Sequence record: MN882349.1
Length of the DNA: 64,000 bases
Origin: Escherichia phage Ec_Makalu_003
Strand: one strand, 5' to 3'
Shown: in pieces, positions 48,275-59,591 of the stretch
Layout: every line of letters starts with the position of its first letter
Numbering within the stretch: the first letter of the stretch is position 1
The notes under the pieces: generated by a model
Seen by the model: only the letters and a program-made list of their open reading frames with translations
Databases searched by the model: none
Told to the model about the DNA's origin: nothing
Made by a program: the position numbers and the translations under genes

Positions 48275-48754
48275 TGCTAAATCATTGCAATATTTTAGTG
48301 CCTTAGTTTGAAACTCTGCGCTGTTAAGTTCTTCATAACGGTCATAATCACCGTTTAATGCTGCCTTTCTTGCTTCTTGTTCTATCTGCATGTCAGACAT
48401 GATAATACAACGATCCCGCGATTTCATCTTCTCAAGTTGTATAGACTCTTCTTGTTGCTTGCGCAATTCTTCTTGATGCTTCTTTTCTTCTCGTGCTTTC
48501 TCTTCCCGCGCTTCTTTGATTGCATCTTTGAACATCTGCGTTTGTGGTGCTAAACCAACTTTAACGCGATCCACGTCTCGACGTTCCATTTTAGAAATAA
48601 AACATGATTCGATCTGGTCATCGCTTGCATATGCTGCTTTACATTCACGAAGCAAGAAAACCGGATCTGATTTAGCATTCATCATAGCTTCCATGTTAGT
48701 ACAACCAGTAAGCATGAATGCAGCCGCAAGACCAATCAGTTTAATCATTTTCAT
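48269..48754 (-). CDS. putative lipoprotein
   Basis: 161 aa; signal peptide with lipobox LTGC (MKMIKLIGLAAAFMLTGC); charged coiled-coil-like segment; SD GAGGTG. Confidence 0.65.
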   Translation of the reverse strand: MKMIKLIGLAAAFMLTGCTNMEAMMNAKSDPVFLLRECKAAYASDDQIESCFISKMERRDVDRVKVGLAPQTQMFKDAIKEAREEKAREEKKHQEELRKQQEESIQLEKMKSRDRCIIMSDMQIEQEARKAALNGDYDRYEELNSAEFQTKALKYCNDLAK

Positions 48755-49575
48755 TTAGTCACCTCACCGAAAATTGTAAATTGTCTACGATTCTCATCGC
48801 CGAAAGATTCTACTACGTCGTTTACCTTGATGCAAGTCCCGCGCGGTAAAATTACTTCACATTCGCAAGGATTCCATGCAATAGACCCAACAACAAAACC
48901 TTTATGATCTTTTACGTCAATTACCCATGATACATTACAAGAATGTTGCATCTTTCCGGTCATTGATTCATATCGATTCTCACAATAAAGGCTAGTGCTG
49001 TTTGAAAGCCATCCTCCAAAGATGATCGGTGTCATGCTGGTCGATACAAAGTTTTTAAAGGTAAATTCCTTATCTTCAATAATACGCTCTATTGTCTGAA
49101 TGTCAAGATGTTGACCGCGATAAAGAGTACCGTTTAACTTTTCGGTTTTATCCATGACACAATCCATCAAATCGACAATCTCTGATATCTCATCGGTCAT
49201 GTCTTCTTCCCCTAAGAGAGCACCATTTACCCATTCGTATTGTTCAGACACATAATCGCAGATTGCATTATATTCTGCTGGGGTTATGTTGTTATGTTTG
49301 TAATGTTTGAATACATTATCTCCAAAATCTTCGGAATGTACTTCATACATCACATTAATGATTTTCTTGACAAATCCATAATCTTGCGTTTCTCGCTCAA
49401 GGAAACGGATAACTTTCACGTAATCATCAAAGTTAATATGATCGCTGATCATTTCAGTGATCATGTAACCATTAATCCCCTCAATGCCATATGTTTCGAT
49501 GTAATTATCCATACGTTCCATCATTGATTCGCGTGATTCTTCGGAAAGGCGAAAATCCTGTAATTTCTTGAACAT
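48751..49575 (-). CDS. ADP-ribosyltransferase, Alt-like paralog
   Basis: 274 aa; R-S-E motifs (LYRGQ, FVSTSMTPIIFGGW, ECEVILPRG) parallel those in the Alt C-terminus. Confidence 0.7.
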   Translation of the reverse strand: MFKKLQDFRLSEESRESMMERMDNYIETYGIEGINGYMITEMISDHINFDDYVKVIRFLERETQDYGFVKKIINVMYEVHSEDFGDNVFKHYKHNNITPAEYNAICDYVSEQYEWVNGALLGEEDMTDEISEIVDLMDCVMDKTEKLNGTLYRGQHLDIQTIERIIEDKEFTFKNFVSTSMTPIIFGGWLSNSTSLYCENRYESMTGKMQHSCNVSWVIDVKDHKGFVVGSIAWNPCECEVILPRGTCIKVNDVVESFGDENRRQFTIFGEVTK

Positions 49576-49653: not shown

Positions 49654-51705
49654 TTACATTTTAAATTTATCCGGCATAGCGTCTACAGACACAAGATCAG
49701 CGATAAGCTGACGTAGAGTTGCCTTATCTGCTTTCTTACGTTCGGTTTTAGCTTCGGTAATGAAGCTGGAGAAAGACAGGTCAGAAGCAGGTTTAACAAC
49801 ACCTTCACGGATGAATGCATCACCGTCCGCGATCATCTCACCAGATTCTTGTAATGCTGCCAGTTCATTTTTGTTCATAATATGTGCCTCAATGTAATAA
49901 GTTTCTTGTGAATCCGTCGATGCCGTAGCACGAGTTACCGTATCAAAGGATAACACAACACCGCGAGGAAGTAAAATCTCGCATTCTTTGTAAGCAAATG
50001 CTTTGTTACCTACTGGCAATACAGGGATGTTTTCCGCGCCAGCAATGGAGAAAGCAACATTAGCGCCACCTTCACCGCGAGATCCAGCCATAGAATCAAC
50101 ACCAGCAACGGCACTAGCCACGTTTGCATTCCATCCACCAAAAATATTAGGTGCAAGGGAAGTGCTCACATAGTTTTTAAAGTAAAACGCTTTTTGCTTA
50201 CGTGCAGTTTCCCACATTTGAGAACGGAAGTCCATACCACGATACAAGATAGTACCTGGATCAAGTTTAACACCATAGTTAGCAAATGCGTTATCCAGTG
50301 CATCACACATCTTGACCAATTCTTCTGGGTCTGCGATGCCTTCAAACTCTTCCAGCTTACGGTCGGTTAGGAAGTTGTTCATATTGATGTATGCTGCATC
50401 CGCATATTCGCTCAACACAAAACCTTCCGCGCCAGGCAGATCAAGATCAATATCTGCCATCATTTCACCCATGTTGCTAGCAATTGCTTCAAACATACCG
50501 GAAGCAACATTACGCAGGGCATCGGTTTTAATCTGCGTGATGTGACTACGCAGCATTTCAGCTTTTACATCTGCTGGCATAGACTGGTCGACGCGATCCA
50601 TTGCCAGGGCGGTGATCTTGTTTTCGAATACTTCCTCGCTCATGATTTCTTTTAAGCGTTTGATTGATGCTGCGATAACTTCCGCAGACAACGGATCATA
50701 TTGATCCTGAACTTTTACCAGTTCGCTTACTGCATATTTTGCATCGGCTTCGCTTTCAAAAATAGTACGCATGAAACCATAGCGAGTGATAATATCACTT
50801 GTCCAGTCATTCAGAGAACGGGCGGTTGAACGTTCTAAGGCTTGACGGTCAATCAGAGTATTAAACTGTTTCTTAGGTTCTGCTTCGGTGATATCTTCTT
50901 CCGGTTTAAGATTAATTTTTTCTGGATGATTCACATAGTCGCTGTTATAGGTCGCTTGAGTTTTCAGCATTTCTTCTTTAGTCAAACGAGATTTAGCCGC
51001 TACGCGTTGTTCTGCTTCCGCGTTTCGTTCTTCTTCCGACACAAGACTAGCCGCATACGCCTCATCTTTAGTCAGAGATTCACCAGTAGCCTTAGATACC
51101 CAGCGATCACCTAAATCACTTTCTACTTTAGTGAACAGGGATTCATCGAGTTTAATCCCTTTAATCTTATCAATCGCCATCCCGCGACGTTTGACAACAA
51201 CTAAAGCGATCTTTTTGCTGGTCATTACTTCCTGCTGGAATACTTCAAACTTCGGTGTACGACGCACCAAACGCTCTATAACGCGCTTAACCAGTTCGGT
51301 CTTACCTTTCATGCGGGATACGTTAAAACGGAACATAACAGCGTCTAATTGCGCTTTACGGGCTGTTTCCATGACCACATCAAAAGCACTTGACATAACT
51401 GCAATCGGGTTATCTCCTAGACCATTTTTAAGCTGTACAATACGACCGCTTTTGTTCATTTCGCACAGTACAACATGTGCGGTCTTGTCACCCATACGAA
51501 TGATTTTAGGTGTTTTGTTGGTGAAGTTACAAAGACGGACAATCACATCTTTATCGCGTGTCTGTACTGCAAAAAGCTGTTTAGGATTCTGCTTAGGCTT
51601 TAAGCACTGTACCGGAGCAATACTGCCAAAGTTTTCTTCCTCTTCCGTCAACAGCCATTTCTCGAAAGATTCAATCATTAGATCGTCGATTTCTAAGTTA
51701 AACAT
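49654..51705 (-). CDS. alt: ADP-ribosyltransferase Alt
   Basis: 683 aa (T4 Alt 682 aa); C-terminal domain with ILYRGMD, NYVSTSLAPNIFGGW, ECEILLPRG. Confidence 0.85.
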   Translation of the reverse strand: MFNLEIDDLMIESFEKWLLTEEEENFGSIAPVQCLKPKQNPKQLFAVQTRDKDVIVRLCNFTNKTPKIIRMGDKTAHVVLCEMNKSGRIVQLKNGLGDNPIAVMSSAFDVVMETARKAQLDAVMFRFNVSRMKGKTELVKRVIERLVRRTPKFEVFQQEVMTSKKIALVVVKRRGMAIDKIKGIKLDESLFTKVESDLGDRWVSKATGESLTKDEAYAASLVSEEERNAEAEQRVAAKSRLTKEEMLKTQATYNSDYVNHPEKINLKPEEDITEAEPKKQFNTLIDRQALERSTARSLNDWTSDIITRYGFMRTIFESEADAKYAVSELVKVQDQYDPLSAEVIAASIKRLKEIMSEEVFENKITALAMDRVDQSMPADVKAEMLRSHITQIKTDALRNVASGMFEAIASNMGEMMADIDLDLPGAEGFVLSEYADAAYINMNNFLTDRKLEEFEGIADPEELVKMCDALDNAFANYGVKLDPGTILYRGMDFRSQMWETARKQKAFYFKNYVSTSLAPNIFGGWNANVASAVAGVDSMAGSRGEGGANVAFSIAGAENIPVLPVGNKAFAYKECEILLPRGVVLSFDTVTRATASTDSQETYYIEAHIMNKNELAALQESGEMIADGDAFIREGVVKPASDLSFSSFITEAKTERKKADKATLRQLIADLVSVDAMPDKFKM

Positions 51706-51746
51706 TTTATATCCTCTAGTTGATAACCTATAAACCTATATTTATG

Positions 51747-51771
51747 AAAAAGGGGCTTAACACCCCCATTT
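51747..51771 (-). terminator. rho-independent terminator (minus strand)
   Basis: Hairpin GGGGGTGTTAAGCCCC followed by TTTTT on the minus strand. Confidence 0.6.
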
Positions 51772-51772
51772 A

Positions 51773-51985
51773 TTATAATGCACCATCGAGCAATTGCTCT
51801 AAGGTGTATCCTGAATAGTCTTTTTCAATCAGGATATATTTTCCTACTCGTTTAATACAACCGCGCATTTCAACGTATTCTGCGTAGTTGATGGTGCGAG
51901 TTGTTCCATCTTCTAGTAAAGCAGTACCGATTTCGTTAATGCGGTCATAAGTTACGTCGGTAATGATGATTTCGATGTTAGCCAT
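51773..51985 (-). CDS. hypothetical protein
   Basis: 70 aa; starts MANIE, sharing its first 15 nt with the ORF at 54109-54360; preceded by promoter cassette C1. Confidence 0.55.
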   Translation of the reverse strand: MANIEIIITDVTYDRINEIGTALLEDGTTRTINYAEYVEMRGCIKRVGKYILIEKDYSGYTLEQLLDGAL

Positions 51986-52021
51986 TTGATACTCCTTAGT
52001 AGTTCGTTTCGGTATGGGTGT

Positions 52022-52050
52022 ATTATGATATACACCCTCTGTTATGTCAA
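52022..52050 (-). promoter_or_regulatory. repeated early promoter cassette C1 (TTGACA-17-CATAAT)
   Basis: Minus-strand -35 TTGACA, 17-nt spacer, -10 CATAAT; inverted repeat GGGTGTAT/ATACACCC spans the -10; conserved leader and AGGAG SD. Confidence 0.6.
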
Positions 52051-52056
52051 CAACTT

Positions 52057-52236
52057 TTAGAACATTTTTGAAATTAATTCTGCTTTGATTTCGCAGAGAA
52101 CATCTAAAGATTTCTCGTCACCCGCTTTTGCTGCTTCTGCTTGCATTTTTGAAATGGCTTCAATGTCAGTGCAATTATAAGCCGCTTGAACTTTAGCGAT
52201 TGCGATGATTGCCGATTCGATGGTTAAGTGTTTCAT
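52057..52236 (-). CDS. hypothetical small protein (59 aa)
   Basis: Minus-strand ORF preceded by cassette C2 with SD AGGAG; below track cut-off. Confidence 0.5.
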   Translation of the reverse strand: MKHLTIESAIIAIAKVQAAYNCTDIEAISKMQAEAAKAGDEKSLDVLCEIKAELISKMF

Positions 52237-52268
52237 GTTTGATTCTCCTTTCGTTTCGGTATGTGTGC

Positions 52269-52297
52269 AGTATAGGGGATCGCCGATCCCCTGTCAA
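52269..52297 (-). promoter_or_regulatory. repeated early promoter cassette C2 (TTGACA-17-TATACT)
   Basis: The 17-nt spacer is the perfect palindrome GGGGATCGGCGATCCCC; same cassette as C10. Confidence 0.6.
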
Positions 52298-52304
52298 CAA
52301 CTTT

Positions 52305-52823
52305 TTAGTTATTTTTTAATTGCTCATCTTGCAATAATGCAATCACATGCTGGCGATGTTCTTCCGATTGAGGAACACCGAAAAAGTTTGTTTTGTAGAA
52401 ATACTCTAATCGGTCTTCTCGTGTGCTCTCTTCCATCATGATCGCGGGTAGTCCAAGATTTCGGAAACGTCGCTTTTCTGCTGGCGTAAAATCACTGTAA
52501 TACAACATAGAATCATCATTACCAGCAATGCTAAACTCATCCTTCATAAAGGAGAATATTGCGTTTAAACGCTGTTTACCGTCCACGATTTCGATCTCAT
52601 AGCGAGAGCCATCATCAATCTTAGCCATTGCGATAGCACCAACCGGAAAATCATTAATCAGGTTTTCGATAAACATACGTTTGTTTTCGGTGTCCCATAC
52701 CAAAGGACGCTGATAATCTGGGTTCATGTTGATATAGCCATCTTCTAACCACGCCTCATAAACAGAGATGACAAAGTTTTTAGTATTGGTATAGTAACGG
52801 CGTTTAGGCGTTAAACGGTTCAT
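52305..52823 (-). CDS. DUF262-like (ParB/Srx-fold) protein
   Basis: 172 aa from ATG 52823 (SD AGGAG); DYQRPLVW and VDGKQRL resemble the DUF262 N-terminal motifs (DGQQR type); last gene of a five-gene operon. Confidence 0.55.
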   Translation of the reverse strand: MNRLTPKRRYYTNTKNFVISVYEAWLEDGYINMNPDYQRPLVWDTENKRMFIENLINDFPVGAIAMAKIDDGSRYEIEIVDGKQRLNAIFSFMKDEFSIAGNDDSMLYYSDFTPAEKRRFRNLGLPAIMMEESTREDRLEYFYKTNFFGVPQSEEHRQHVIALLQDEQLKNN

Positions 52824-52824
52824 G

Positions 52825-53157
52825 TTATAGTCTCCTGAATGGATCATCACGTAAATCAATATCTTTTAAGAACTCATCCCATGAATGGCGGATAATGTTC
52901 TTAATTCTCCAGATAAGCGCAGGGATTGAACGCTCTCCCATCTGGAAGTAAGGATCATATGATCCATATGCCCAATATGCTACTACAATTCCACAATCGG
53001 CGCAATAATATTCTATTTCACTTGCTGGCGACCAAAGTCCATCAATATGATCACGGATCTTGCTTTCGATGTTATGGCTATGGCAATCAGGGCAACGGAT
53101 GCAATGACCTTGTTTATCGTAATTTGACGTTAGCGAATACTTAAACAATCTCATCAT
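52825..53157 (-). CDS. zinc-ribbon protein
   Basis: 110 aa; CIRCPDC ... CADCG (CxxC...CxxC); start overlaps upstream stop. Confidence 0.55.
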   Translation of the reverse strand: MMRLFKYSLTSNYDKQGHCIRCPDCHSHNIESKIRDHIDGLWSPASEIEYYCADCGIVVAYWAYGSYDPYFQMGERSIPALIWRIKNIIRHSWDEFLKDIDLRDDPFRRL

Positions 53158-53870
53158 AGATCCTTATTGGCTTCAAATACTGCCTTTGCGAATCCTCGCG
53201 GGGTAAGTGACCTGATAGTCTTTGTTCTGGTTCCTTTCCCGCCTAGCTTAGAATGCTGTTTACTGTACCCTTTATTAATCTGCAACGGTTTCTTTTCTGG
53301 CATTATAAAGCCTTGTCCGGTCCATAAGCAAGTCTTTTTCGGGTACATATCACGGGCGGCAATATACTCAGGAAACGTAGGATGCTTATCATCTTCCGGC
53401 AAATAACCGCCATATTCCCACGGATGGAACATGTAATCAGGCTTACGCCACATGCTAGAGATAACGCTTACAGGATTCTCTATCATGTAGGGAACTCCTA
53501 GCCATTCACCCAAATAAGCGGTTATTTTAGCTGCCCTTACATCATGAACTTGAATTAATGGTCCTTGTTCTCGTTTCTTTCGTTCAAAGTGCGCAGCGCC
53601 ACTAACAGCTAAATTGGTGCATGGTGGGAATGCAAAGATAATATCCGGTTTCCCCCATTCAAGGTCCATTGCTCTTTCCAGCCAATTTAAATCAATCCAT
53701 GTGTTTACATATGTAATGTTTGGATGTTCAAATCTGGTATTATATTTTTTGTATGTACCGTGGTCGCCATCGTCAGCATTAAAGCAGATCACCTTATGAC
53801 CTGCTTTAGCCCATTCTAACCCCATTATCCCCGATCCGTCAAAGTTGCAGAATATTAATTTTTGTTTCAT
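53154..53870 (-). CDS. C5-cytosine DNA methyltransferase-like protein (compact)
   Basis: 238 aa; motif I-like LIFCNFDGSGIMGLEWAKAGHKVICFNADD, motif IV-like IIFAFPPCTNLAVSG (Pro-Cys), motif VI-like MIENP; region after motif VI too short for a typical target-recognition domain. Confidence 0.55.
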   Translation of the reverse strand: MKQKLIFCNFDGSGIMGLEWAKAGHKVICFNADDGDHGTYKKYNTRFEHPNITYVNTWIDLNWLERAMDLEWGKPDIIFAFPPCTNLAVSGAAHFERKKREQGPLIQVHDVRAAKITAYLGEWLGVPYMIENPVSVISSMWRKPDYMFHPWEYGGYLPEDDKHPTFPEYIAARDMYPKKTCLWTGQGFIMPEKKPLQINKGYSKQHSKLGGKGTRTKTIRSLTPRGFAKAVFEANKDL

Positions 53871-54112
53871 ATACGCCCCTTTAACCCAACACAGATTTTA
53901 GAAGGTTCTTTGCCGTGCCACATTAAGTAAATTCCGTTAATGCGTCCTTGTTTTGTATATGATTCTTTTCTGATCTTCTTATAGTGTCGTGCTTCCTCAG
54001 CCGATTGTTTAGAATGTCGATCATAAAGGAAGAGGAACAAAGGCCAACCATTAGCGGCCTTAATGCAGTTATTCAAAAATTCCTTATTTCGTTTAATTAA
54101 TTTTCTTTTCAC
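53867..54112 (-). CDS. hypothetical basic protein
   Basis: 81 aa; GTG start overlapping the upstream stop; Lys/Arg-rich. Confidence 0.45.
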   Translation of the reverse strand: MKRKLIKRNKEFLNNCIKAANGWPLFLFLYDRHSKQSAEEARHYKKIRKESYTKQGRINGIYLMWHGKEPSKICVGLKGRI

Positions 54113-54360
54113 GCTGCCCCCATTGGTTTGATAGTAACAGAATCTAAAAGACCTTTGTTAGCCAGTTCGCGGCAAGTTTTCAGATCCGCAACTTCCCAGC
54201 CAGCCGCAATAAGGTTATCAATGAGGCTGTTAGCAACTTCTTCGCTCATGAAAGAGCACTGTTTGCCGATGGTGTAGCGTACACGCTGTAATTTCAGTTT
54301 ACGGAAGCCTTTAACGTTCAGGTCTTTAGCGATTTTCTTTGCGGTTTCGATGTTAGCCAT
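54109..54360 (-). CDS. hypothetical protein
   Basis: 83 aa; starts MANIE; first gene after cassette C3. Confidence 0.55.
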   Translation of the reverse strand: MANIETAKKIAKDLNVKGFRKLKLQRVRYTIGKQCSFMSEEVANSLIDNLIAAGWEVADLKTCRELANKGLLDSVTIKPMGAA

Positions 54361-54400
54361 TGTTTGATTCTCCTAAGTGGTATCTCGTCTTGATGGTTGT

Positions 54401-54429
54401 ATTGTAGGGGAGTTATCCTCCCCTGTCAA
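54401..54429 (-). promoter_or_regulatory. repeated early promoter cassette C3 (TTGACA-17-TACAAT)
   Basis: Spacer is the palindrome GGGGAGGATAACTCCCC; SD AGGAG downstream. Confidence 0.6.
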
Positions 54430-54443
54430 CACTTTTTATAAAA

Positions 54444-54611
54444 TTATTTGTTAATTTCTGGTGCGTTGCTAGGATAGTAACCTTCTTTAACTCCGAGGTA
54501 TTTTGCAACCATCCCTACAATCTTCTGTGCTACTACAATGTCAAATTTCAGATAATCTTCGCCGTGGGTTTCAATGATATATGCTTCACATGCTGCTTTA
54601 GTCTCGAACAT
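54444..54611 (-). CDS. hypothetical small protein (55 aa), paralog of 57726-57893
   Basis: MFETKAACEAYIIETHGEDYLKFDIVVAQKIVGMVAKYLGVKEGYYPSNAPEINK; near-identical to the ORF at 57726-57893. Confidence 0.55.
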   Translation of the reverse strand: MFETKAACEAYIIETHGEDYLKFDIVVAQKIVGMVAKYLGVKEGYYPSNAPEINK

Positions 54612-54644
54612 TTTGATTCTCCTATTTCGTTTCGGTATGTGTGT

Positions 54645-54673
54645 ATTATAGGGGATCTCCCGATCCCCGTCAA
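54645..54673 (-). promoter_or_regulatory. repeated early promoter cassette C4 (TTGACG-17-TATAAT)
   Basis: Palindromic spacer GGGATCGGGAGATCCCC; SD AGGAG downstream. Confidence 0.6.
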
Positions 54674-54687
54674 CAACTTTTTTAAAA

Positions 54688-54969
54688 TTATTCGTGATTA
54701 GTTTCGATATTGTGCATTTTGCACCAGTTCAGCCAATCGCCAAGATCTTGATAGTTGATGCTTTTATCTGCTGCCATCGTTTTTGTCTTGATACCCATAT
54801 GTGCGTTATGAGTAAGCATTTTTACAGTGAACTCAATTTTATCGCCTTTAGCTTTAACATCAACCAGTTTGGTCCACTGGCTACCAGCACCGCGAATGTT
54901 CATACCAACGATGTTTCCGATGTATGCTTCTTTGTTGTTCAGGATTTCGGTTGCTTTGATGAATTTCAT
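54688..54969 (-). CDS. hypothetical protein
   Basis: 93 aa; preceded by cassette C5. Confidence 0.55.
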   Translation of the reverse strand: MKFIKATEILNNKEAYIGNIVGMNIRGAGSQWTKLVDVKAKGDKIEFTVKMLTHNAHMGIKTKTMAADKSINYQDLGDWLNWCKMHNIETNHE

Positions 54970-55002
54970 TTTTGATTCTCCAGTTCGTTTCGGTATGGGT
55001 GT

Positions 55003-55031
55003 ATTATGCTATGTTCTTACTTTGGTGTCAA
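55003..55031 (-). promoter_or_regulatory. repeated early promoter cassette C5 (TTGACA-17-CATAAT)
   Basis: Same -35/-10/leader/SD architecture as C1; no palindrome in the spacer. Confidence 0.55.
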
Positions 55032-55039
55032 CAACTTTT

Positions 55040-55309
55040 TTAGATATTTTCAGAAATAAATTTTAAAACTTGACGTAAATGTTTCTCATCTTTGATAGTC
55101 GCCGGAAGTTCTTCTTTTACTTCCTGTGCAAGATAGATATTTCCGTTCCAAGTGAAAGACCCGTCTTCGTTTACGCGATAGCTGAACATCCATTCGCAAT
55201 CATTTTCGATTTCATATACACACAGAAGGGTGTAATCTTCAAAGCTATTGATTTCAAGGTCGAAGCCGTGGCGTTTTGCAAAGTTGGTAGTGGTTTTAGT
55301 CAGTGCCAT
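55040..55309 (-). CDS. hypothetical protein
   Basis: 89 aa; preceded by cassette C6. Confidence 0.55.
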   Translation of the reverse strand: MALTKTTTNFAKRHGFDLEINSFEDYTLLCVYEIENDCEWMFSYRVNEDGSFTWNGNIYLAQEVKEELPATIKDEKHLRQVLKFISENI

Positions 55310-55348
55310 TGTTTGATTCTCCTAAGTGGTATCTCGTTTCGATGGGTG

Positions 55349-55377
55349 TATTATGCTATAGGCGTGATCAGGTGTCA
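55349..55377 (-). promoter_or_regulatory. repeated early promoter cassette C6 (TTGACA-17-CATAAT)
   Basis: Same architecture; immediately downstream of the terminator at 55403-55428. Confidence 0.55.
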
Positions 55378-55402
55378 ATGCCTTTTTTAAAATTTTATGC
55401 AA

Positions 55403-55428
55403 TAAAAAAGCCGACACTAAGGTCGGCT
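55403..55428 (-). terminator. rho-independent terminator (minus strand)
   Basis: Hairpin AGCCGACCTTAGTGTCGGCT followed by TTTTTT on the minus strand. Confidence 0.65.
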
Positions 55429-55435
55429 AATAAAA

Positions 55436-55744
55436 TCATTTAGACAAATAATCATTCAGTGCAATCCGGTCGGCATGTTCCGGCGTTACATCAATCGCAA
55501 TCACTTTAACGCGTGCTTTCTTGCGACCTGGGTTTTCTCGTAACCAGTGCTCATGACCGTGAACATTTTTATACTGCGATGCTTCTTCGAAGGTACGGAT
55601 CGGACCAGGGTAATCAGCGTAAAGGATCTCTAGGTCATCGGTGATGTAAAAATATACGTTGTAATTACTGTTCTCTAGCTTAAGCAGAGACTTTCGGAAC
55701 ATTGGGAGATTTTCGCGGGTAAATTCAAAAGTAATATCTTTCAT
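55436..55744 (-). CDS. HxHW-motif small protein family member
   Basis: 102 aa from ATG 55744 (SD GAGGAT); YFYITDDLEILYADY ... HGHEHWL ... VKVIAIDV. Confidence 0.55.
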   Translation of the reverse strand: MKDITFEFTRENLPMFRKSLLKLENSNYNVYFYITDDLEILYADYPGPIRTFEEASQYKNVHGHEHWLRENPGRKKARVKVIAIDVTPEHADRIALNDYLSK

Positions 55745-55766
55745 AGTATTATCCTCAATAGTTGGA

Positions 55767-55788
55767 TGAAAAGGGGGCTTAACGCCCC
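55767..55788 (-). terminator. terminator-like hairpin (minus strand)
   Basis: Hairpin GGGGCGTTAAGCCCCC followed by TTTTC on the minus strand. Confidence 0.5.
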
Positions 55789-55793
55789 ATATA

Positions 55794-56081
55794 TTAAAAC
55801 AGTCCTTCCTGTACACCGTAGTAGAGTTCGTCGCTGATAATTTCATTAATGCGACGGTGTGCATATTCCTGATTTGCGAAGTTGTCAGCAAGTTCTACTT
55901 TAGTTTCACCGTCATGAGTCCATTTAGTGATAACTTTACCATCTGCAAATTTGAAGTTGAACTCTTTAGCTACTGCATCGCGTACCAGACGTGCGAACTT
56001 GTTGTTACGGATTGCATTATCGGTTTCGTGTGCAGCGTGAGCAAATTTGTTAACTTTCAGAGTGATAGTGATGTATGCCAT
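55794..56081 (-). CDS. hypothetical protein
   Basis: 95 aa; preceded by cassette C7. Confidence 0.55.
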   Translation of the reverse strand: MAYITITLKVNKFAHAAHETDNAIRNNKFARLVRDAVAKEFNFKFADGKVITKWTHDGETKVELADNFANQEYAHRRINEIISDELYYGVQEGLF

Positions 56082-56127
56082 AATTTGATTCTCCTAGTTA
56101 GAAAGTGTATCTCGTTTCGATGGGTGT

Positions 56128-56156
56128 ATTATGCTATACACCCGATCTTATGTCAA
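56128..56156 (-). promoter_or_regulatory. repeated early promoter cassette C7 (TTGACA-17-CATAAT)
   Basis: Inverted repeat GGGTGTAT/ATACACCC spans the -10, as in C1. Confidence 0.6.
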
Positions 56157-56163
56157 CACTTTT

Positions 56164-56442
56164 TTATAAAATAATTTTTTGATATTTTTCTATGATGTTT
56201 GTGTAATCCACATCAACCGCTATCACCGTTGCTTCGAATCCACCGTTTAGCCAATGGCTATGGTCATGATCGTGAAAGAAACCAAGACCAGTACGAAGAC
56301 CTTCTTTATATTCGGCGCGTACATTTAGATCATCATCGATAAACAGATAAAACCATGAATTTTTACTAGGATTGATGATACAACCTTTCAGATTAGGGAG
56401 AATATCACGACTAAGAATAAACTTATCACCTACTTTGAACAT
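56164..56442 (-). CDS. HxHW-motif small protein family member
   Basis: 92 aa from ATG 56442 (SD GAGGA); WFYLFIDDDLNVRAEY ... HDHDHSHWL ... VIAVDV. Confidence 0.55.
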   Translation of the reverse strand: MFKVGDKFILSRDILPNLKGCIINPSKNSWFYLFIDDDLNVRAEYKEGLRTGLGFFHDHDHSHWLNGGFEATVIAVDVDYTNIIEKYQKIIL

Positions 56443-56446
56443 AATA

Positions 56447-56767
56447 TTAGTCCTCACTTATAAGGTCAAACCAATTGTTTTTCGCATAATGCTTAATGCG
56501 TGCTTGATCTGCTTCCGCTGGTGATAGATTCCATGCAACCACTACAACTTCTGACGCGTCGTCATCCGTTTCTGATACCCAATGATTGTGATTCATACAG
56601 TTATTTGCGATCGAGTGAGCAAATGATTTCATCACTGGAGACGTATAATCATAGTAACGGATTTTCAGATTTTCATCAACATACAAGTAGATCGTATAAG
56701 GTTTATATTCAGTAACCAGTAACAGACAGTTACGCAATTCTGGGAAAATCTTTTTAGTTAATTTCAT
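56447..56767 (-). CDS. HxHW-motif small protein family member
   Basis: 106 aa from ATG 56767; YTIYLYVDENLKIRYYDY ... HNHW ... VVVVAW. Confidence 0.5.
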   Translation of the reverse strand: MKLTKKIFPELRNCLLLVTEYKPYTIYLYVDENLKIRYYDYTSPVMKSFAHSIANNCMNHNHWVSETDDDASEVVVVAWNLSPAEADQARIKHYAKNNWFDLISED

Positions 56768-56768
56768 T

Positions 56769-56987
56769 TTATAATCCTCGGTCGCGGCTATAGTACACGG
56801 TACGCCATACAATTTCATGTTTCGTGTCGCTCCAGCACACGATCTCATTTACTCTTAAATCTTTGTTATCAACAAAAGATGAACATTGTGACGCTTCTTT
56901 CATCATTTTATCTGCTGTTTTCTCATCAAATACAGCACAGATTTCTTTATACACTCGATAATCTTTGAATTGACTCTGGATACCCAT
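56769..56987 (-). CDS. hypothetical protein, tandem paralog of 56947-57204
   Basis: About 72 aa; SQFKDYRVYKEICAVFDEKTADKMMKEASQCSSF parallels the upstream ORF; start uncertain (56987 or 56999). Confidence 0.45.
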   Translation of the reverse strand: MGIQSQFKDYRVYKEICAVFDEKTADKMMKEASQCSSFVDNKDLRVNEIVCWSDTKHEIVWRTVYYSRDRGL

Positions 56988-57204
56988 AATTAACACCATT
57001 CCAACCAATTGTTTTTGAGAAAACGTTTATCCACTGTTGAGTGTAGCATGTTTCTTTCCATGATACAATACGAGTAGAATAATGGTTTTTGTTTCCAGAA
57101 AAGGACGGGCATTTTGATGCATCTTCCATCATCTTTTCGGCGAACTCCGCGTCATATACCCGCAGGATCTGTTGATATGCTTTATAATCTTTAAATTTGC
57201 TCAT
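56947..57204 (-). CDS. hypothetical protein, tandem paralog of 56769-56987
   Basis: 85 aa; MSKFKDYKAYQQILRVYDAEFAEKMMEDASKCPSF. Confidence 0.5.
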   Translation of the reverse strand: MSKFKDYKAYQQILRVYDAEFAEKMMEDASKCPSFSGNKNHYSTRIVSWKETCYTQQWINVFSKTIGWNGVNYGYPESIQRLSSV

Positions 57205-57469
57205 AATTGTTAACTACCTTATCAGCTTCTTTTATTGTTTTTACATCAACTGCGATAATCCGTAAAGGTTCGTCGAAGGTCCACCAGTGGTCATGAATAT
57301 CAGCTTGTGATTTATCACCAAAGGAATCACGAATATCATTTTTACATTTATAGCTAATATGGCCTTCATAGTCAACATAAAGGTAATTATCGAAAATCGG
57401 AGTTTTTAAGATCATACCGAAAAATCTTTCTTTGTGTGTCTTATCAAGTGTTGCAGTAATTCGCATCAT
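57191..57469 (-). CDS. HxHW-motif small protein family member
   Basis: 92 aa; SD GAGGA; NYLYVDYEGHISY ... HDHWW ... RIIAVDV. Confidence 0.55.
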   Translation of the reverse strand: MMRITATLDKTHKERFFGMILKTPIFDNYLYVDYEGHISYKCKNDIRDSFGDKSQADIHDHWWTFDEPLRIIAVDVKTIKEADKVVNNYEQI

Positions 57470-57481
57470 AATATATTCCTC

Positions 57482-57661
57482 TTAGAAAGGGATGGTCATT
57501 TCTTGAGCTTGTACATTCTCGTTAGGATTAAACTTCATCCAACCGATATTGTCTACCAGCATATGTACATTTTTATCATATCCTACGTGAGTAGTCAACA
57601 CTAAATGTGCTTTACCTTCAACGATGATTTCCATGTACTTCTGAACTTCGATAGCTTTCAT
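57482..57661 (-). CDS. hypothetical small protein (59 aa)
   Basis: Minus-strand ORF directly downstream of cassette C8; below track cut-off. Confidence 0.45.
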   Translation of the reverse strand: MKAIEVQKYMEIIVEGKAHLVLTTHVGYDKNVHMLVDNIGWMKFNPNENVQAQEMTIPF

Positions 57662-57693
57662 TTTGATTCTCCGTTTGTTGTCTTGATGGGAGT

Positions 57694-57722
57694 ATCTTAC
57701 TACTCCCTTTAATCATTGTCAA
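57694..57722 (-). promoter_or_regulatory. repeated early promoter cassette C8 (TTGACA-17-TAAGAT, weak -10)
   Basis: Inverted repeat GGGAGTA/TACTCCC overlaps the -10 region. Confidence 0.45.
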
Positions 57723-57725
57723 CTA

Positions 57726-57893
57726 TTATTTGTTAATTTCTGGTGCGTTGCTCGGATAGTAACCTTCTTTAACACCCAGATATTTTGCAACCATTCCGGT
57801 GATCTTCTGTGCTACTACGATATCGAATTTCAGGTAGTCTTCACCGTGGTTTGCTACAATGTATGCTTCGCATTCTGCTTTAGTCTGGAACAT
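57726..57893 (-). CDS. hypothetical small protein (55 aa), paralog of 54444-54611
   Basis: MFQTKAECEAYIVANHGEDYLKFDIVVAQKITGMVAKYLGVKEGYYPSNAPEINK; the track start at 57929 extends into the promoter cassette. Confidence 0.55.
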   Translation of the reverse strand: MFQTKAECEAYIVANHGEDYLKFDIVVAQKITGMVAKYLGVKEGYYPSNAPEINK

Positions 57894-57927
57894 TTTTGAT
57901 TCTCCTATATCTCGTTGGTATGTGTGC

Positions 57928-57956
57928 ATTATAGGGGATCACCGATCCCCTGTCAA
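57928..57956 (-). promoter_or_regulatory. repeated early promoter cassette C9 (TTGACA-17-TATAAT)
   Basis: Palindromic spacer GGGGATCGGTGATCCCC. Confidence 0.6.
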
Positions 57957-57961
57957 CAACT

Positions 57962-58255
57962 TTATAATGCTTTATACGCGTATTTCATAAATTTGTCTGC
58001 CACTTCATTGGCATGTTCAGATTCTACGCCTGATTCGAGAACAATAGCTAGGTCGGTTTCGTCATTCCCGCCGTACCAATGATTTGATGTTCGATTTTTT
58101 TCAATTGGAAATTGGTCACTTTTATCTGTGCGACAAAATACATCTAAATGCTCGTCGATGTAAAAGATCCAATCTTCATAAAGAATAACGGTATTAGCAA
58201 GATTTTTATTGCCTTCAACGAAAGGTTCCGCGACAAATAGCTTAGTTTGTTCCAT
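57962..58255 (-). CDS. HxHW-motif small protein family member (divergent)
   Basis: 97 aa from ATG 58255 (SD GAGGAA); ILYEDWIFYIDEHLDVF ... SNHWYGG ... LAIVLESG. Confidence 0.5.
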   Translation of the reverse strand: MEQTKLFVAEPFVEGNKNLANTVILYEDWIFYIDEHLDVFCRTDKSDQFPIEKNRTSNHWYGGNDETDLAIVLESGVESEHANEVADKFMKYAYKAL

Positions 58256-58271
58256 AGTAATTTCCTCAAAA

Positions 58272-58463
58272 TTATACAGTTTCGTAAACTTCCCAATGTT
58301 CAGCGCCAACACGCTTAACGAAAAGGTTTTCTTTGATGTTATTCATAAACGTCTGGATGGATTTAATGCGGTTTGAAGGTTTCCATTCTTCGTTGGCATT
58401 GCGTCGATACATCATAACATTACCAGTTCGCTTATATTCAGCAACCATTTTAAGACCACACAT
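58272..58463 (-). CDS. hypothetical protein
   Basis: 63 aa; SD GAGGA. Confidence 0.5.
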   Translation of the reverse strand: MCGLKMVAEYKRTGNVMMYRRNANEEWKPSNRIKSIQTFMNNIKENLFVKRVGAEHWEVYETV

Positions 58464-58520
58464 AATATTATCCTCAATTTGTGGGAGAGTATTACCCCTC
58501 CCAATGATTGTTATGTTATA

Positions 58521-58841
58521 TCACACAAAATGGCGTGTCAATGCTTCTTTTGCGGTTCCGCTAAGACTTTCAATCTCGCCTGGCATAACATCAACCGCCA
58601 GAACTTCTACAACATCTTCGGACCCTAACCAGTGAGTATGGCCTTTGTAGAACTTGATAACCAGACCACCTTCCTCGTCCCATTTAACGCTATCGCTAGC
58701 CCACCACACATCACCGTCGATAAAGTTGATGTAAAGCACACTACGCCACATTGAATTAATTACTTTCAATACTGCGCCTTTCATCTCTTCCACGGTATGG
58801 TCTTCCATTTTGAAGACCTCACCTACCTGAACTTTTGCCAT
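58521..58841 (-). CDS. HxHW-motif small protein family member
   Basis: 106 aa; VLYINFIDGDVWWASD ... HTHWL ... VLAVDV. Confidence 0.55.
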   Translation of the reverse strand: MAKVQVGEVFKMEDHTVEEMKGAVLKVINSMWRSVLYINFIDGDVWWASDSVKWDEEGGLVIKFYKGHTHWLGSEDVVEVLAVDVMPGEIESLSGTAKEALTRHFV

Positions 58842-58858
58842 TTAGTCACCTCTCTTTA

Positions 58859-59038
58859 TTACATAACAATCACGCCAGCCGTTGAAAGTTGATGTTTCAA
58901 CTGAGCATTTTCTGCTACTGTCAAATCAATGATTTCTTGTGACGCTGCAATCATATAACCATTGGTGATATTGTTTTGCATCAGTTCAATGGTTTCTTCG
59001 TTGTAGCGGATTTTAGCGATGATTTCGTTGAAGTTCAT
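58859..59038 (-). CDS. hypothetical small protein (59 aa)
   Basis: MNFNEIIAKIRYNEETIELMQNN...; preceded by cassette C10; the track start at 59104 extends into the promoter. Confidence 0.5.
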   Translation of the reverse strand: MNFNEIIAKIRYNEETIELMQNNITNGYMIAASQEIIDLTVAENAQLKHQLSTAGVIVM

Positions 59039-59072
59039 AATTGATTCTCCTAGTTCGTTTCGGTATGTGTGC

Positions 59073-59101
59073 AGTATAGGGGATCGCCGATCCCCTGTCA
59101 A
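59073..59101 (-). promoter_or_regulatory. repeated early promoter cassette C10 (TTGACA-17-TATACT)
   Basis: Spacer GGGGATCGGCGATCCCC identical to C2; begins right after the HNH gene stop. Confidence 0.6.
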
Positions 59102-59114
59102 CAACTTTTTTGAA

Positions 59115-59591
59115 TTATTTTTCTTGATGCTCGCGCTCGTACTTTTCGAAATAAAATTCTACTGGCTGATCGTGGATTGAAAGCAAGCCAAAGCGTTTAG
59201 CCGCACGTAATCCCATGTTACGTTGAATGTACTTCTGGAAGTTCTCGCGTATACACTTACGCCAGTATTCTAAGCCCATACAGCTTTTGTAAAGATTGCA
59301 TTGCACACAAGCCGGATTCATGTTGTCAAGTATATCGTGCTCCGGTTTATGCATTCCTACAACCTTATACTTCCACGATCCATCATCATTACGGGCAATT
59401 CGTCCATTTTCATCATAGACTACTTTTGAGCGTCGCAATACTGGTTTGATGTGGTCTGCGTGCCAGCGATCCCCTAGTTCCTCGCCACAATAGGCACAAC
59501 GCCCACCGTATTTCATTTTCAGGATCTGGCGTTGCTCTTTCTTTGACAATTTTTTAGGTTTAGGGGCTTTCGCCCCTTCATTATCACACAT
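59115..59591 (-). CDS. HNH endonuclease
   Basis: 158 aa; CAYCGEEL ... WHADHIKPV ... NMNPACVQCN; start overlaps the 3' end of DNA ligase gene 30. Confidence 0.75.
   Translation of the reverse strand: MCDNEGAKAPKPKKLSKKEQRQILKMKYGGRCAYCGEELGDRWHADHIKPVLRRSKVVYDENGRIARNDDGSWKYKVVGMHKPEHDILDNMNPACVQCNLYKSCMGLEYWRKCIRENFQKYIQRNMGLRAAKRFGLLSIHDQPVEFYFEKYEREHQEK

Follow-up and report, generated by a model that had tools for sequence, protein, structure and literature searches.

Repeated promoter-early stem-loop (PeSL) cassettes appear to act as recombination sites for the turnover of small open reading frames (ORFs) in the RB49-like early region of Escherichia phage Ec_Makalu_003 (sequence record MN882349.1), a reading to which we give a probability of about 0.82. 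The analysis concerns a stretch of 64,000 nucleotides (nt), hereafter the window, and within it positions 54444–57893, for which a sequence-only reading had proposed cassette-mediated duplication and shuffling of small ORFs. The six ORFs on which that proposal was built were all recovered on the minus strand, in the positions and reading frames given for them, and its central idea, that cassettes are sites of small-ORF gain, loss and exchange, is supported both by natural recombinants and by published experiments at the same locus. Cassette anatomy, paralogy, chimeric cassettes and mosaics in relatives were observed directly in this work. The mechanism itself, PeSL-mediated modular shuffling, is already known, and the detail added here is modestly new.

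The early-gene locus and its cassettes

Positions 51700–59200 of the window are 99.5% identical to Escherichia phage Ec_Makalu_001 and 95–97% identical to about 45 other Krischvirus genomes (RB49-like, Straboviridae). All genes lying between alt (49654–51705) and the HNH gene (59115–59591) are on the minus strand and correspond one-to-one with ORF185 to ORF212 of RB49/phi1/GEC-3S; relative to RB49, ORF192, ORF195-196.1, ORF210 and ORF211 are absent. By these matches the window is that of a Krischvirus (RB49-like) T4-type coliphage, and the flagged stretch corresponds to the hyperplastic early-gene region ORF185–ORF212 of RB49/phi1.

Ten intergenic regions of 64–126 nt are built alike. A stop codon embedded in AT-rich sequence comes first, followed by (G)TTGACA and, after a spacer of exactly 17 nt, a TATAAT-like hexamer; then come a conserved leader, GGAGAATCAA and an ATG. 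The ten are located as follows, with the 17-nt spacer written as "17" between the two promoter hexamers and the Shine-Dalgarno sequence abbreviated as SD.

59039–59114, minus strand: PeSL212/209, an empty site at which relatives carry ORF210 (with or without ORF211)
57894–57961, minus strand: PeSL206/205, TTGACA-17-TATAAT (12/12 promoter match), hairpin GGGGATCGGTGATCCCC occupying the spacer, followed by SD and ATG of ORF205
57662–57725, minus strand: PeSL205/204, TTGACA-17-TAAGAT, hairpin GGGAGTAG...ACTCCC over the -10 box; fold -15.2 kcal/mol, z = -4.5
56082–56163, minus strand: PeSL199/198, TTGACA-17-CATAAT, hairpin GGGTGTAT...ATACACCC over the -10 box, z = -3.95
55310–55435, minus strand: terminator hairpin and PeSL197/194, an empty site at which RB49, JK32, MIZ4 and KMB43 carry ORF195-196.1 (about 500 nt)
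54970–55039, minus strand: PeSL194/193, promoter TTGACA-17-CATAAT
54612–54687, minus strand: PeSL193/191, AT-rich tract, TTGACG-17-TATAAT, spacer hairpin GGGGATCGGGAGATCCCC, SD and ATG of ORF191
54361–54443, minus strand: PeSL191/190, TTGACA-17-TACAAT, spacer hairpin GGGGAGGATAACTCCCC, z = -3.7
51986–52304, minus strand: PeSL187/186, ORF186 (52057–52236) and PeSL186/185, together a single-ORF cassette

Nine of these intergenic sites match the sigma-70 promoter at 11 or more of 12 positions and PeSL205/204 at 10 of 12, all with 17-nt spacers and all on the minus (coding) strand. The AT-rich tract upstream of the -35 box, which includes the stop codon of the upstream gene, reads TAA(T)TTTTAAAAAAGTTGTTGAC or a variant thereof in 10/10 cassettes, and the SD GGAGAATCAA together with the ATG of the downstream ORF forms the 3' end of every one. 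G/C-rich hairpins of 7–8 base pairs are present in eight of the ten, being situated in the spacer in 212/209, 206/205, 193/191, 191/190 and 187/186 and over the -10 box in 205/204, 199/198 and 186/185; a remnant only is found in PeSL197/194. The cassettes are 66–97% alike and have the same orientation throughout. Downstream of them stand ORFs (185, 190, 191, 193, 194, 198, 204 and 205) that gave no Pfam match and belong only to PHROGs of unknown function.

On this anatomy the cassettes are PeSLs as published, which were defined in RB49 and phi1 from two genomes (Arbiol et al., 2010, Genome Biol Evol 2:140, PMC2839356) and later extended to other T4-like phages (Comeau et al., 2014, PMC4122927). 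The RB49/phi1 elements and those of the window agree in genus, in locus (ORF185-212), in cassette anatomy, including a hairpin of the form G(n)-loop-C(n), and in their association with gain and loss of ORFans. Promoter activity has been published for PeSL206/205 and PeSL193/192 and terminator activity for PeSL211/210 of phi1/RB49, and a PeSL206/205 lacZ fusion gave ~13,000 Miller units (PMC2839356). PeSL206/205 of the window is the same as that of RB49 at all 14 upstream diagnostic sites.

Two further observations concern the regulatory sequences. PeSL212/209 (59039–59114) and PeSL187/186 (52237–52304) lie 6.8 kilobases (kb) apart and are 97% identical, while the paralogous coding sequences of 55 amino acids (aa) described below are only 86% identical; concerted evolution or a recent cassette exchange is suggested. 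Three promoter-less hairpins with T-runs close multi-gene units as terminators, at 55745–55793 (GGGGCGTTAAGCCCC), 51706–51772 (GGGGGTGTTAAGCCCC) and 55405–55432 (GCCGACCTTAGTGTCGGC). The first and second share 91% identity, and the third is duplicated in RB49, where it flanks both sides of the ORF195-196.1 insert.

Recombination between cassettes in related phages

The homologous region was retrieved from 14 relatives and a gene presence matrix was built. Gene content varied among them, ORF186, 189.1, 191, 193-205, 201 and 206-211 being missing from some. Pairwise global MAFFT alignments of 13 relatives were adequate for small indels and misplaced the large deletions of MIZ4, FL04, Cognac and phiS; a greedy chain of blastn high-scoring segment pairs, tried for breakpoints, was dropped since it was confounded by the repeated cassettes. 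This comparison of presence and absence, which had been put forward as a check, uncovered chimeric cassettes with crossovers inside PeSLs in JK32, KFS-EC, MIZ4, Cognac, FL04, phiS and the window itself.

In JK32 the 193/190 chimera follows PeSL193/191 as far as the -10 box and then continues with the PeSL191/190 leader, ORF191 being lost with 244 nt. The 187/185 chimera of KFS-EC consists of PeSL187/186 followed by the PeSL186/185 leader, with a 247-nt loss, and the same 247-nt PeSL-to-PeSL deletion occurs in JK32, Cognac and phiS; its length equals the repeat spacing. MIZ4 has PeSL193/191 fused to PeSL186/185, with ORF186-191 gone, and in phiS a PeSL212/210-type leader is fused straight to the ATG of ORF205. 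PeSL212/209 of the window joins the left half of phi1 PeSL212/210 to the right half of phi1 PeSL210/209, the two cassettes that flank ORF210, which is the scar expected after excision of an ORF210 mini-circle. Taken over the relatives, the crossovers fall in the interval bounded by the AT-rich/-35 tract and the SD/ATG.

These natural junctions have counterparts in the published work. Encapsidated mini-circles carrying ORFs 191-194, 192-193 and 210 were sequenced, and their crossovers lie between the -10 box and the ATG, in the loop, or near the AT-rich tract (PMC2839356). For the ORF191-194 mini-circle the crossover partner was PeSL191/190 and the crossover fell between the -10 box and the ATG, the interval of a 33-nt match (PMC2839356). 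In the window that exact match joins 54356–54388 to 55305–55337, in PeSL191/190 and PeSL197/194, and covers the leader, the SD, the ATG and the first two bases of codon 2 (ATGGC) of ORF190 and ORF194. The window has empty sites for ORF192 and ORF210, the ORFans with sequenced mini-circles; at the former, PeSL193/191, RB49 has a 541-nt insertion (ORF192) and JSE a 362-nt insertion with a different ORF.

The two 55-aa ORFs at the ends of the flagged stretch are themselves recombination partners.

54444–54611, minus strand: ORF191 (copy A), 55-aa ORF; absent from JK32 and MIZ4, the sole copy in Cognac and FL04
57726–57893, minus strand: ORF205 (copy B), 55-aa ATG ORF with SD GGAGAATC upstream; present in 12/14 relatives, Cognac and FL04 retaining an ORF191-type copy only

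Cognac and FL04 carry a single 55-aa copy between ORF206 and ORF190, the 3.3 kb (3282 nt) between the copies having been deleted and a mosaic copy kept. The Cognac crossover lies between the leader and the SD/ATG (diagnostic sites b...b before it, then a x20 and bbbb) and that of FL04 at the AT-rich/-35 tract. Exchange without deletion is also seen: the ORF191 copies of FL37, MIZ6 and phiS have runs of ORF205-type bases at the 3' end, the one in MIZ6 carrying a private variant of that phage's own ORF205 copy, and ORF205 of KMB43 has an internal ORF191-type patch of three sites. Judged from these diagnostic bases, the tracts in FL37, MIZ6, phiS and KMB43 are gene-conversion patches, and the two 55-aa copies still recombine. 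In JSE and FL37 an ORF205-type hairpin sits on an ORF191-type leader.

The shared start of ORF185 and ORF190

Another sign of shuffling had been seen in two unrelated ORFs sharing their first 15 nt, as would be expected if recombination junctions fell in the cassette and start region.

51773–51985, minus strand: ORF185, start ATGGCTAACATCGAAA (MANIE)
54109–54360, minus strand: ORF190, start ATGGCTAACATCGAAA (MANIE); no detectable sequence similarity to ORF185

The shared start is real and statistically unusual. Both ORFs open with ATGGCTAACATCGAA, and the identity comprises 16 nt from the ATG (not 15) plus 2 nt before it. Even at 2 mismatches the sequence matches nowhere else in the window, and wherever a relative carries the genes, both preserve this start. 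With position-specific base frequencies, the chance of a 16-nt prefix is ~9e-7 per pair, ~2e-4 for the 276 regional pairs and ~0.03 for a genome of ~275 genes. As evidence of shuffling the prefix is insufficient, for no recombinant using this site was found among the relatives examined.

We put at even odds the explanation that the prefix is no recombination scar, having arisen by chance or by convergent selection at the translation-initiation region. It accords with the lack of a recombinant at the site and with SD-to-ATG spacers that differ between the two genes (GGAGTATCAAATG and GGAGAATCAAACAATG), and the exact 33-nt stretch of untranslated region and ATGGC shared by ORF190 and ORF194 indicates that short islands of identity round start codons are common here. 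A GCT second codon and A-rich early codons are, moreover, typical of highly expressed Escherichia coli genes. The regional probability speaks for a scar instead, the next-best shared prefix among 24 local genes being 8 nt, as does the position of the crossovers in PMC2839356, between the -10 box and the ATG. So do the ORF185 homologs in Drexlerviridae (43–50%), which have longer, unrelated N-termini and are homologous from about residue 5 onward; a grafted ORF185 N-terminus would be compatible with these distant homologs, which are not decisive. No homologs of ORF190 were found outside Krischvirus.

Origin of the two 55-aa ORFs

ORF191 and ORF205 give an ungapped alignment with 144/168 identical nt (85.7%) and 50/55 identical aa (blastp E = 9e-35), and both belong to PHROG 8009. 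Their codons differ by 15 synonymous and 6 non-synonymous changes, giving a non-synonymous divergence (dN) of 0.055, a synonymous divergence (dS) of 0.55–0.84 and a dN/dS of ~0.07–0.1. The two are thus clearly paralogs, and the ratio bespeaks purifying selection; the earlier description of them as near-identical is too strong for a pair with 86% nt identity, 50/55 aa and such a dS. That each is flanked by promoter cassettes was correct: near-consensus promoters (TTGACA, 17 nt, TATAAT-like; 10–12/12 matches) with hairpins lie on both sides of each ORF. Both copies stand at the same two loci, with locus-specific differences, in 10/14 relatives, and match counts point to two copies in about 51 of 58 Krischvirus records. 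Since the copies group by locus, the duplication would be older than the radiation of the genus.

Homologs of the 55-aa family, 70–72% identical, were also observed in unrelated ~47-kb siphophages (Swiduovirus and relatives; Escherichia phage swi2, 1501–1656). Together with the Drexlerviridae homologs of ORF185, their occurrence in Swiduovirus-type siphophages suggests that tiny ORFans move between distant coliphage lineages.

The mobility of the family is one reason to consider that the two ORFs were acquired independently from different donor phages, each into a cassette site. A dS near saturation, set against 0–3 nt between orthologs across Krischvirus, would fit such a history, as would flanking cassettes that show no duplication-specific similarity. 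We nonetheless hold it to be unlikely. Identity between the two copies exceeds that of either with the 51-aa swi2 homolog, the one outgroup examined (36/50 and 34/50), and both have a C-terminal PEINK that this homolog lacks, which favors duplication within the lineage. No source of either type was found outside Krischvirus, and mechanistically the same cassette-mediated insertion would still be needed. That a duplication of ORF191/ORF205 passed through a cassette or mini-circle intermediate is, in our estimation, slightly favored over the contrary.

Weighing cassette-mediated turnover

Several results weigh against turnover directed by the cassettes. Among ~11 indel classes in the 13 aligned relatives, six are at PeSL intergenic regions and five at PeSL-free gene junctions, the latter comprising ORF189.1, ORF201, inserts in JSE (at 209/208) and FL04 (at 188/187), and a replacement within 189.1 of phiS. 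Given that a PeSL occupies ~10/24 gene junctions, 6/11 is no significant enrichment over any gene boundary. Junctions in MIZ4, FL04, Cognac and phiS were placed by hand from intergenic sequences, the global alignment having misplaced them. PeSL194/193 has no stable hairpin, its fold of -3.2 kcal/mol being no better than that of shuffled sequences. Finally, no cassette-specific footprint of the original ORF191/205 duplication survives. Similarity between the two modules runs from the AT-rich/-35 tract to just past the stop codon, and the duplicated segment does not extend into the flanks above background, the upstream cassettes being 91% alike (subtype background 89–97%) and the downstream ones 73%. 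Homology specific to the pair is limited to the coding sequence, with cassettes bounding both sides. With flank similarity at or below background, the boundaries of the duplication are compatible with cassette junctions and do not prove the cassettes to be its route.

The cassettes might accordingly be strong early promoters and terminators that selection has kept alike, with indels ending there because events that break genes are purged, and without any targeting. The five cassette-free indel classes agree with this, as do gene-sized allelic replacements in cassette-free operon positions (ORF201 62%, ORF203 54%, ORF206 70–72%, ORF200 53%). It is nevertheless rather improbable. The case for targeting is made by the in-register joining of the chimeric cassettes, by deletions (247, 244 and 3282 nt) exactly as long as the repeat spacing and by the published mini-circles with sequenced PeSL-PeSL junctions (PMC2839356), and the identity of PeSL212/209 with PeSL187/186, higher than that of paralogous coding sequences, also runs counter to selection acting alone. 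Duplicates produced by assembly, through collapsed or mis-joined repeats, can be dismissed: no evidence supporting such an artefact was found, and both copies recur, each at its own locus and with substitutions particular to that locus, in genomes sequenced independently from 2003 to 2025.

Hence the PeSL model is well supported for shuffling, plausible and unproven for the origin of the 55-aa pair, and wrong for the tandem pair considered next.

The tandem pair ORF201/ORF202

56947–57204, minus strand: ORF202, the upstream paralog; a frameshift has given it a C-terminal tail of 16 aa, which overlaps ORF201
56769–56987, minus strand: ORF201, downstream tandem paralog; absent from JSE and KMB43

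These two ORFs had been described as tandem paralogs with overlapping reading frames, which is accurate as an observation: identity between the proteins is 42.6% over 61 aa (E = 4e-15), both are in PHROG 8471, and the frames overlap by 41 nt. It does not bear on cassette shuffling, as no cassette lies between ORF202 and ORF201, both of which are inside the ORF204-199 operon, and the overlap derives from an indel. In phi1, JSE and KMB43, ORF202 ends with ...LEWC and a stop codon (TGGTGTTAA), followed directly by TT-ATG in phi1 and JSE; the 16-aa tail and 41-nt overlap of the window and RB49 result from a net 5-nt indel just upstream, which shifts the frame past this ancestral stop. The tail lies outside the coverage of the PHROG profile. 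ORF201 exists as two divergent alleles, with 100% and 62% aa identity to the window protein. From its sequence relationships the pair is an ordinary tandem duplication within an operon plus allelic replacement, with no cassette involved.

The HxHW family and other genes of the region

A second family of paralogs in the region is formed by six proteins of 92–106 aa, encoded within 55436–58841.

55436–55744, minus strand: ORF197, HxHW paralog
56164–56442, minus strand: ORF199, HxHW paralog
56447–56767, minus strand: ORF200, HxHW paralog
57191–57469, minus strand: ORF203, HxHW paralog
57962–58255, minus strand: ORF206, HxHW paralog
58521–58841, minus strand: ORF208, HxHW paralog

Alignments of the family showed an invariant His-Trp and a conserved core, ...HxHW...V(I/L)A(V)DV..P..AD; of the two His in HxHW, one is near-invariant and the other invariant. 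When 5.8 billion proteins were searched with a profile of the family, 84 matches were obtained, none of which has a Pfam domain. Those with names are all from Krischvirus phages, save three that bear an E. coli label and lie on contigs of phage size and a few from uncultured Caudoviricetes, and the long contigs are 163–176 kb; the family appears to be confined to Krischvirus-like contigs. The AlphaFold model is confident (predicted local distance difference test score, 85.7; predicted template modelling score, 0.80). A sequence search against the PDB gave nothing meaningful, and Foldseek with the predicted fold against BFVD returned Krischvirus paralogs only. Five of the six HxHW genes (55436–59038, minus strand) are directly preceded by a small unrelated ORF of 59–95 aa (ORF209 before ORF208, 207 before 206, 204 before 203, 201 before 200 and 198 before 197), ORF199 following ORF200, so that small ORF and HxHW gene look like repeated two-gene modules. 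By blastp the small partner ORFs have no mutual similarity except for the ORF201/202 pair.

A Pfam scan of 20 ORFs of the region gave matches only to GmrSD_N (ORF187), HNH (ORF212) and, below threshold, a zinc ribbon (ORF188), and PHROGs assigned only families of unknown function. ORF187 (52305–53870 region, minus strand) is a stand-alone GmrSD_N/DUF262 (ParB-like nuclease) domain protein (Pfam E = 4e-20) located two genes downstream of ORF189, a cytosine methyltransferase. Over about 175 nt, ORF189 shares ~80% identity with the DNA methyltransferase region found in Salmonella siphophages of ~48 kb. Next to alt (49654–51705), the gene at 48751–49575 is a shorter paralog of the C-terminal ADP-ribosyltransferase part of alt (37% over 109 aa), and it is an ADP-ribosyltransferase in the annotations of relatives.

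Mechanism and relation to known systems

We propose that, because the cassettes are similar and co-oriented, the homologous-recombination machinery of the phage would pair them out of register, leading to excision of the intervening ORF or ORFs, probably as mini-circles. Alternatively, re-insertion would take place at a different cassette, or sequence would be exchanged with a relative infecting the same cell. ORF191 and ORF205 most likely go back to a single ORF that was duplicated long ago into another cassette site, and purifying selection has since maintained both. They would still interact, leaving the gene-conversion patches and, in some phages, the 3.3-kb deletion between copies.

With respect to the two papers on PeSLs, what is added here is the ORF191/ORF205 paralogy, the inter-copy deletion of Cognac and FL04 and the conversion patches; the mechanism is not new. 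In the literature on Krischvirus cassettes nothing later than the 2010 and 2014 papers was found. The main texts of PMC2839356 and PMC4122927 contain no words beginning with "duplicat" or "paralog", and "gene conversion" is absent from PMC4122927.

Integron gene cassettes offer a parallel, being small, mostly single-ORF modules that are excised as circles, re-inserted at a repeated site and arranged in one-orientation orphan arrays. Unlike them, PeSLs have neither an integrase nor attC/attI, and exchange appears to be by general homologous recombination; integron cassettes are, furthermore, usually promoterless, whereas PeSL cassettes each bring a promoter and a terminator with them. Another parallel lies in the mosaic genomes of lambdoid and other tailed phages, where modules are exchanged, as with PeSLs, by crossover at short stretches conserved at the boundaries of genes. 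PeSLs differ from these boundary sequences in that each is a defined functional promoter-terminator unit, with ~50 direct repeats per genome, and in that they support intragenomic deletion and duplication besides exchange between genomes.

Significance

The 14 genomes provide a population-scale confirmation of PeSL shuffling, with precise chimeric cassettes, a recurrent 3.3-kb deletion, gene-conversion tracts and the caveat of cassette-free indels; no concept is changed by it. A bolder reading, possible although we lean against it, is that PeSL mini-circles are also a copy-and-paste route, ORF191/205 being the duplicative re-insertion of one ORF that has been selected as a two-dose or sub-functionalised pair still exchanging sequence, and the region a paralog "nursery". 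If this were true, 10/17 ORFs from ORF191 to ORF209 (54.4–59.0 kb), counting the HxHW family and ORF201/202, would be products of local duplication, and the region would generate paralogs of early host-takeover or anti-defence proteins and not just be a landing pad for foreign ORFans. As for cassette-mediated turnover as such, PeSL-type cassettes would account for how T4-like phages turn over accessory early genes, likely concerned with host takeover and anti-defence, while their operons remain unbroken, which is of relevance to the stability of phage-therapy strains and to the interpretation of "ORFan" regions.

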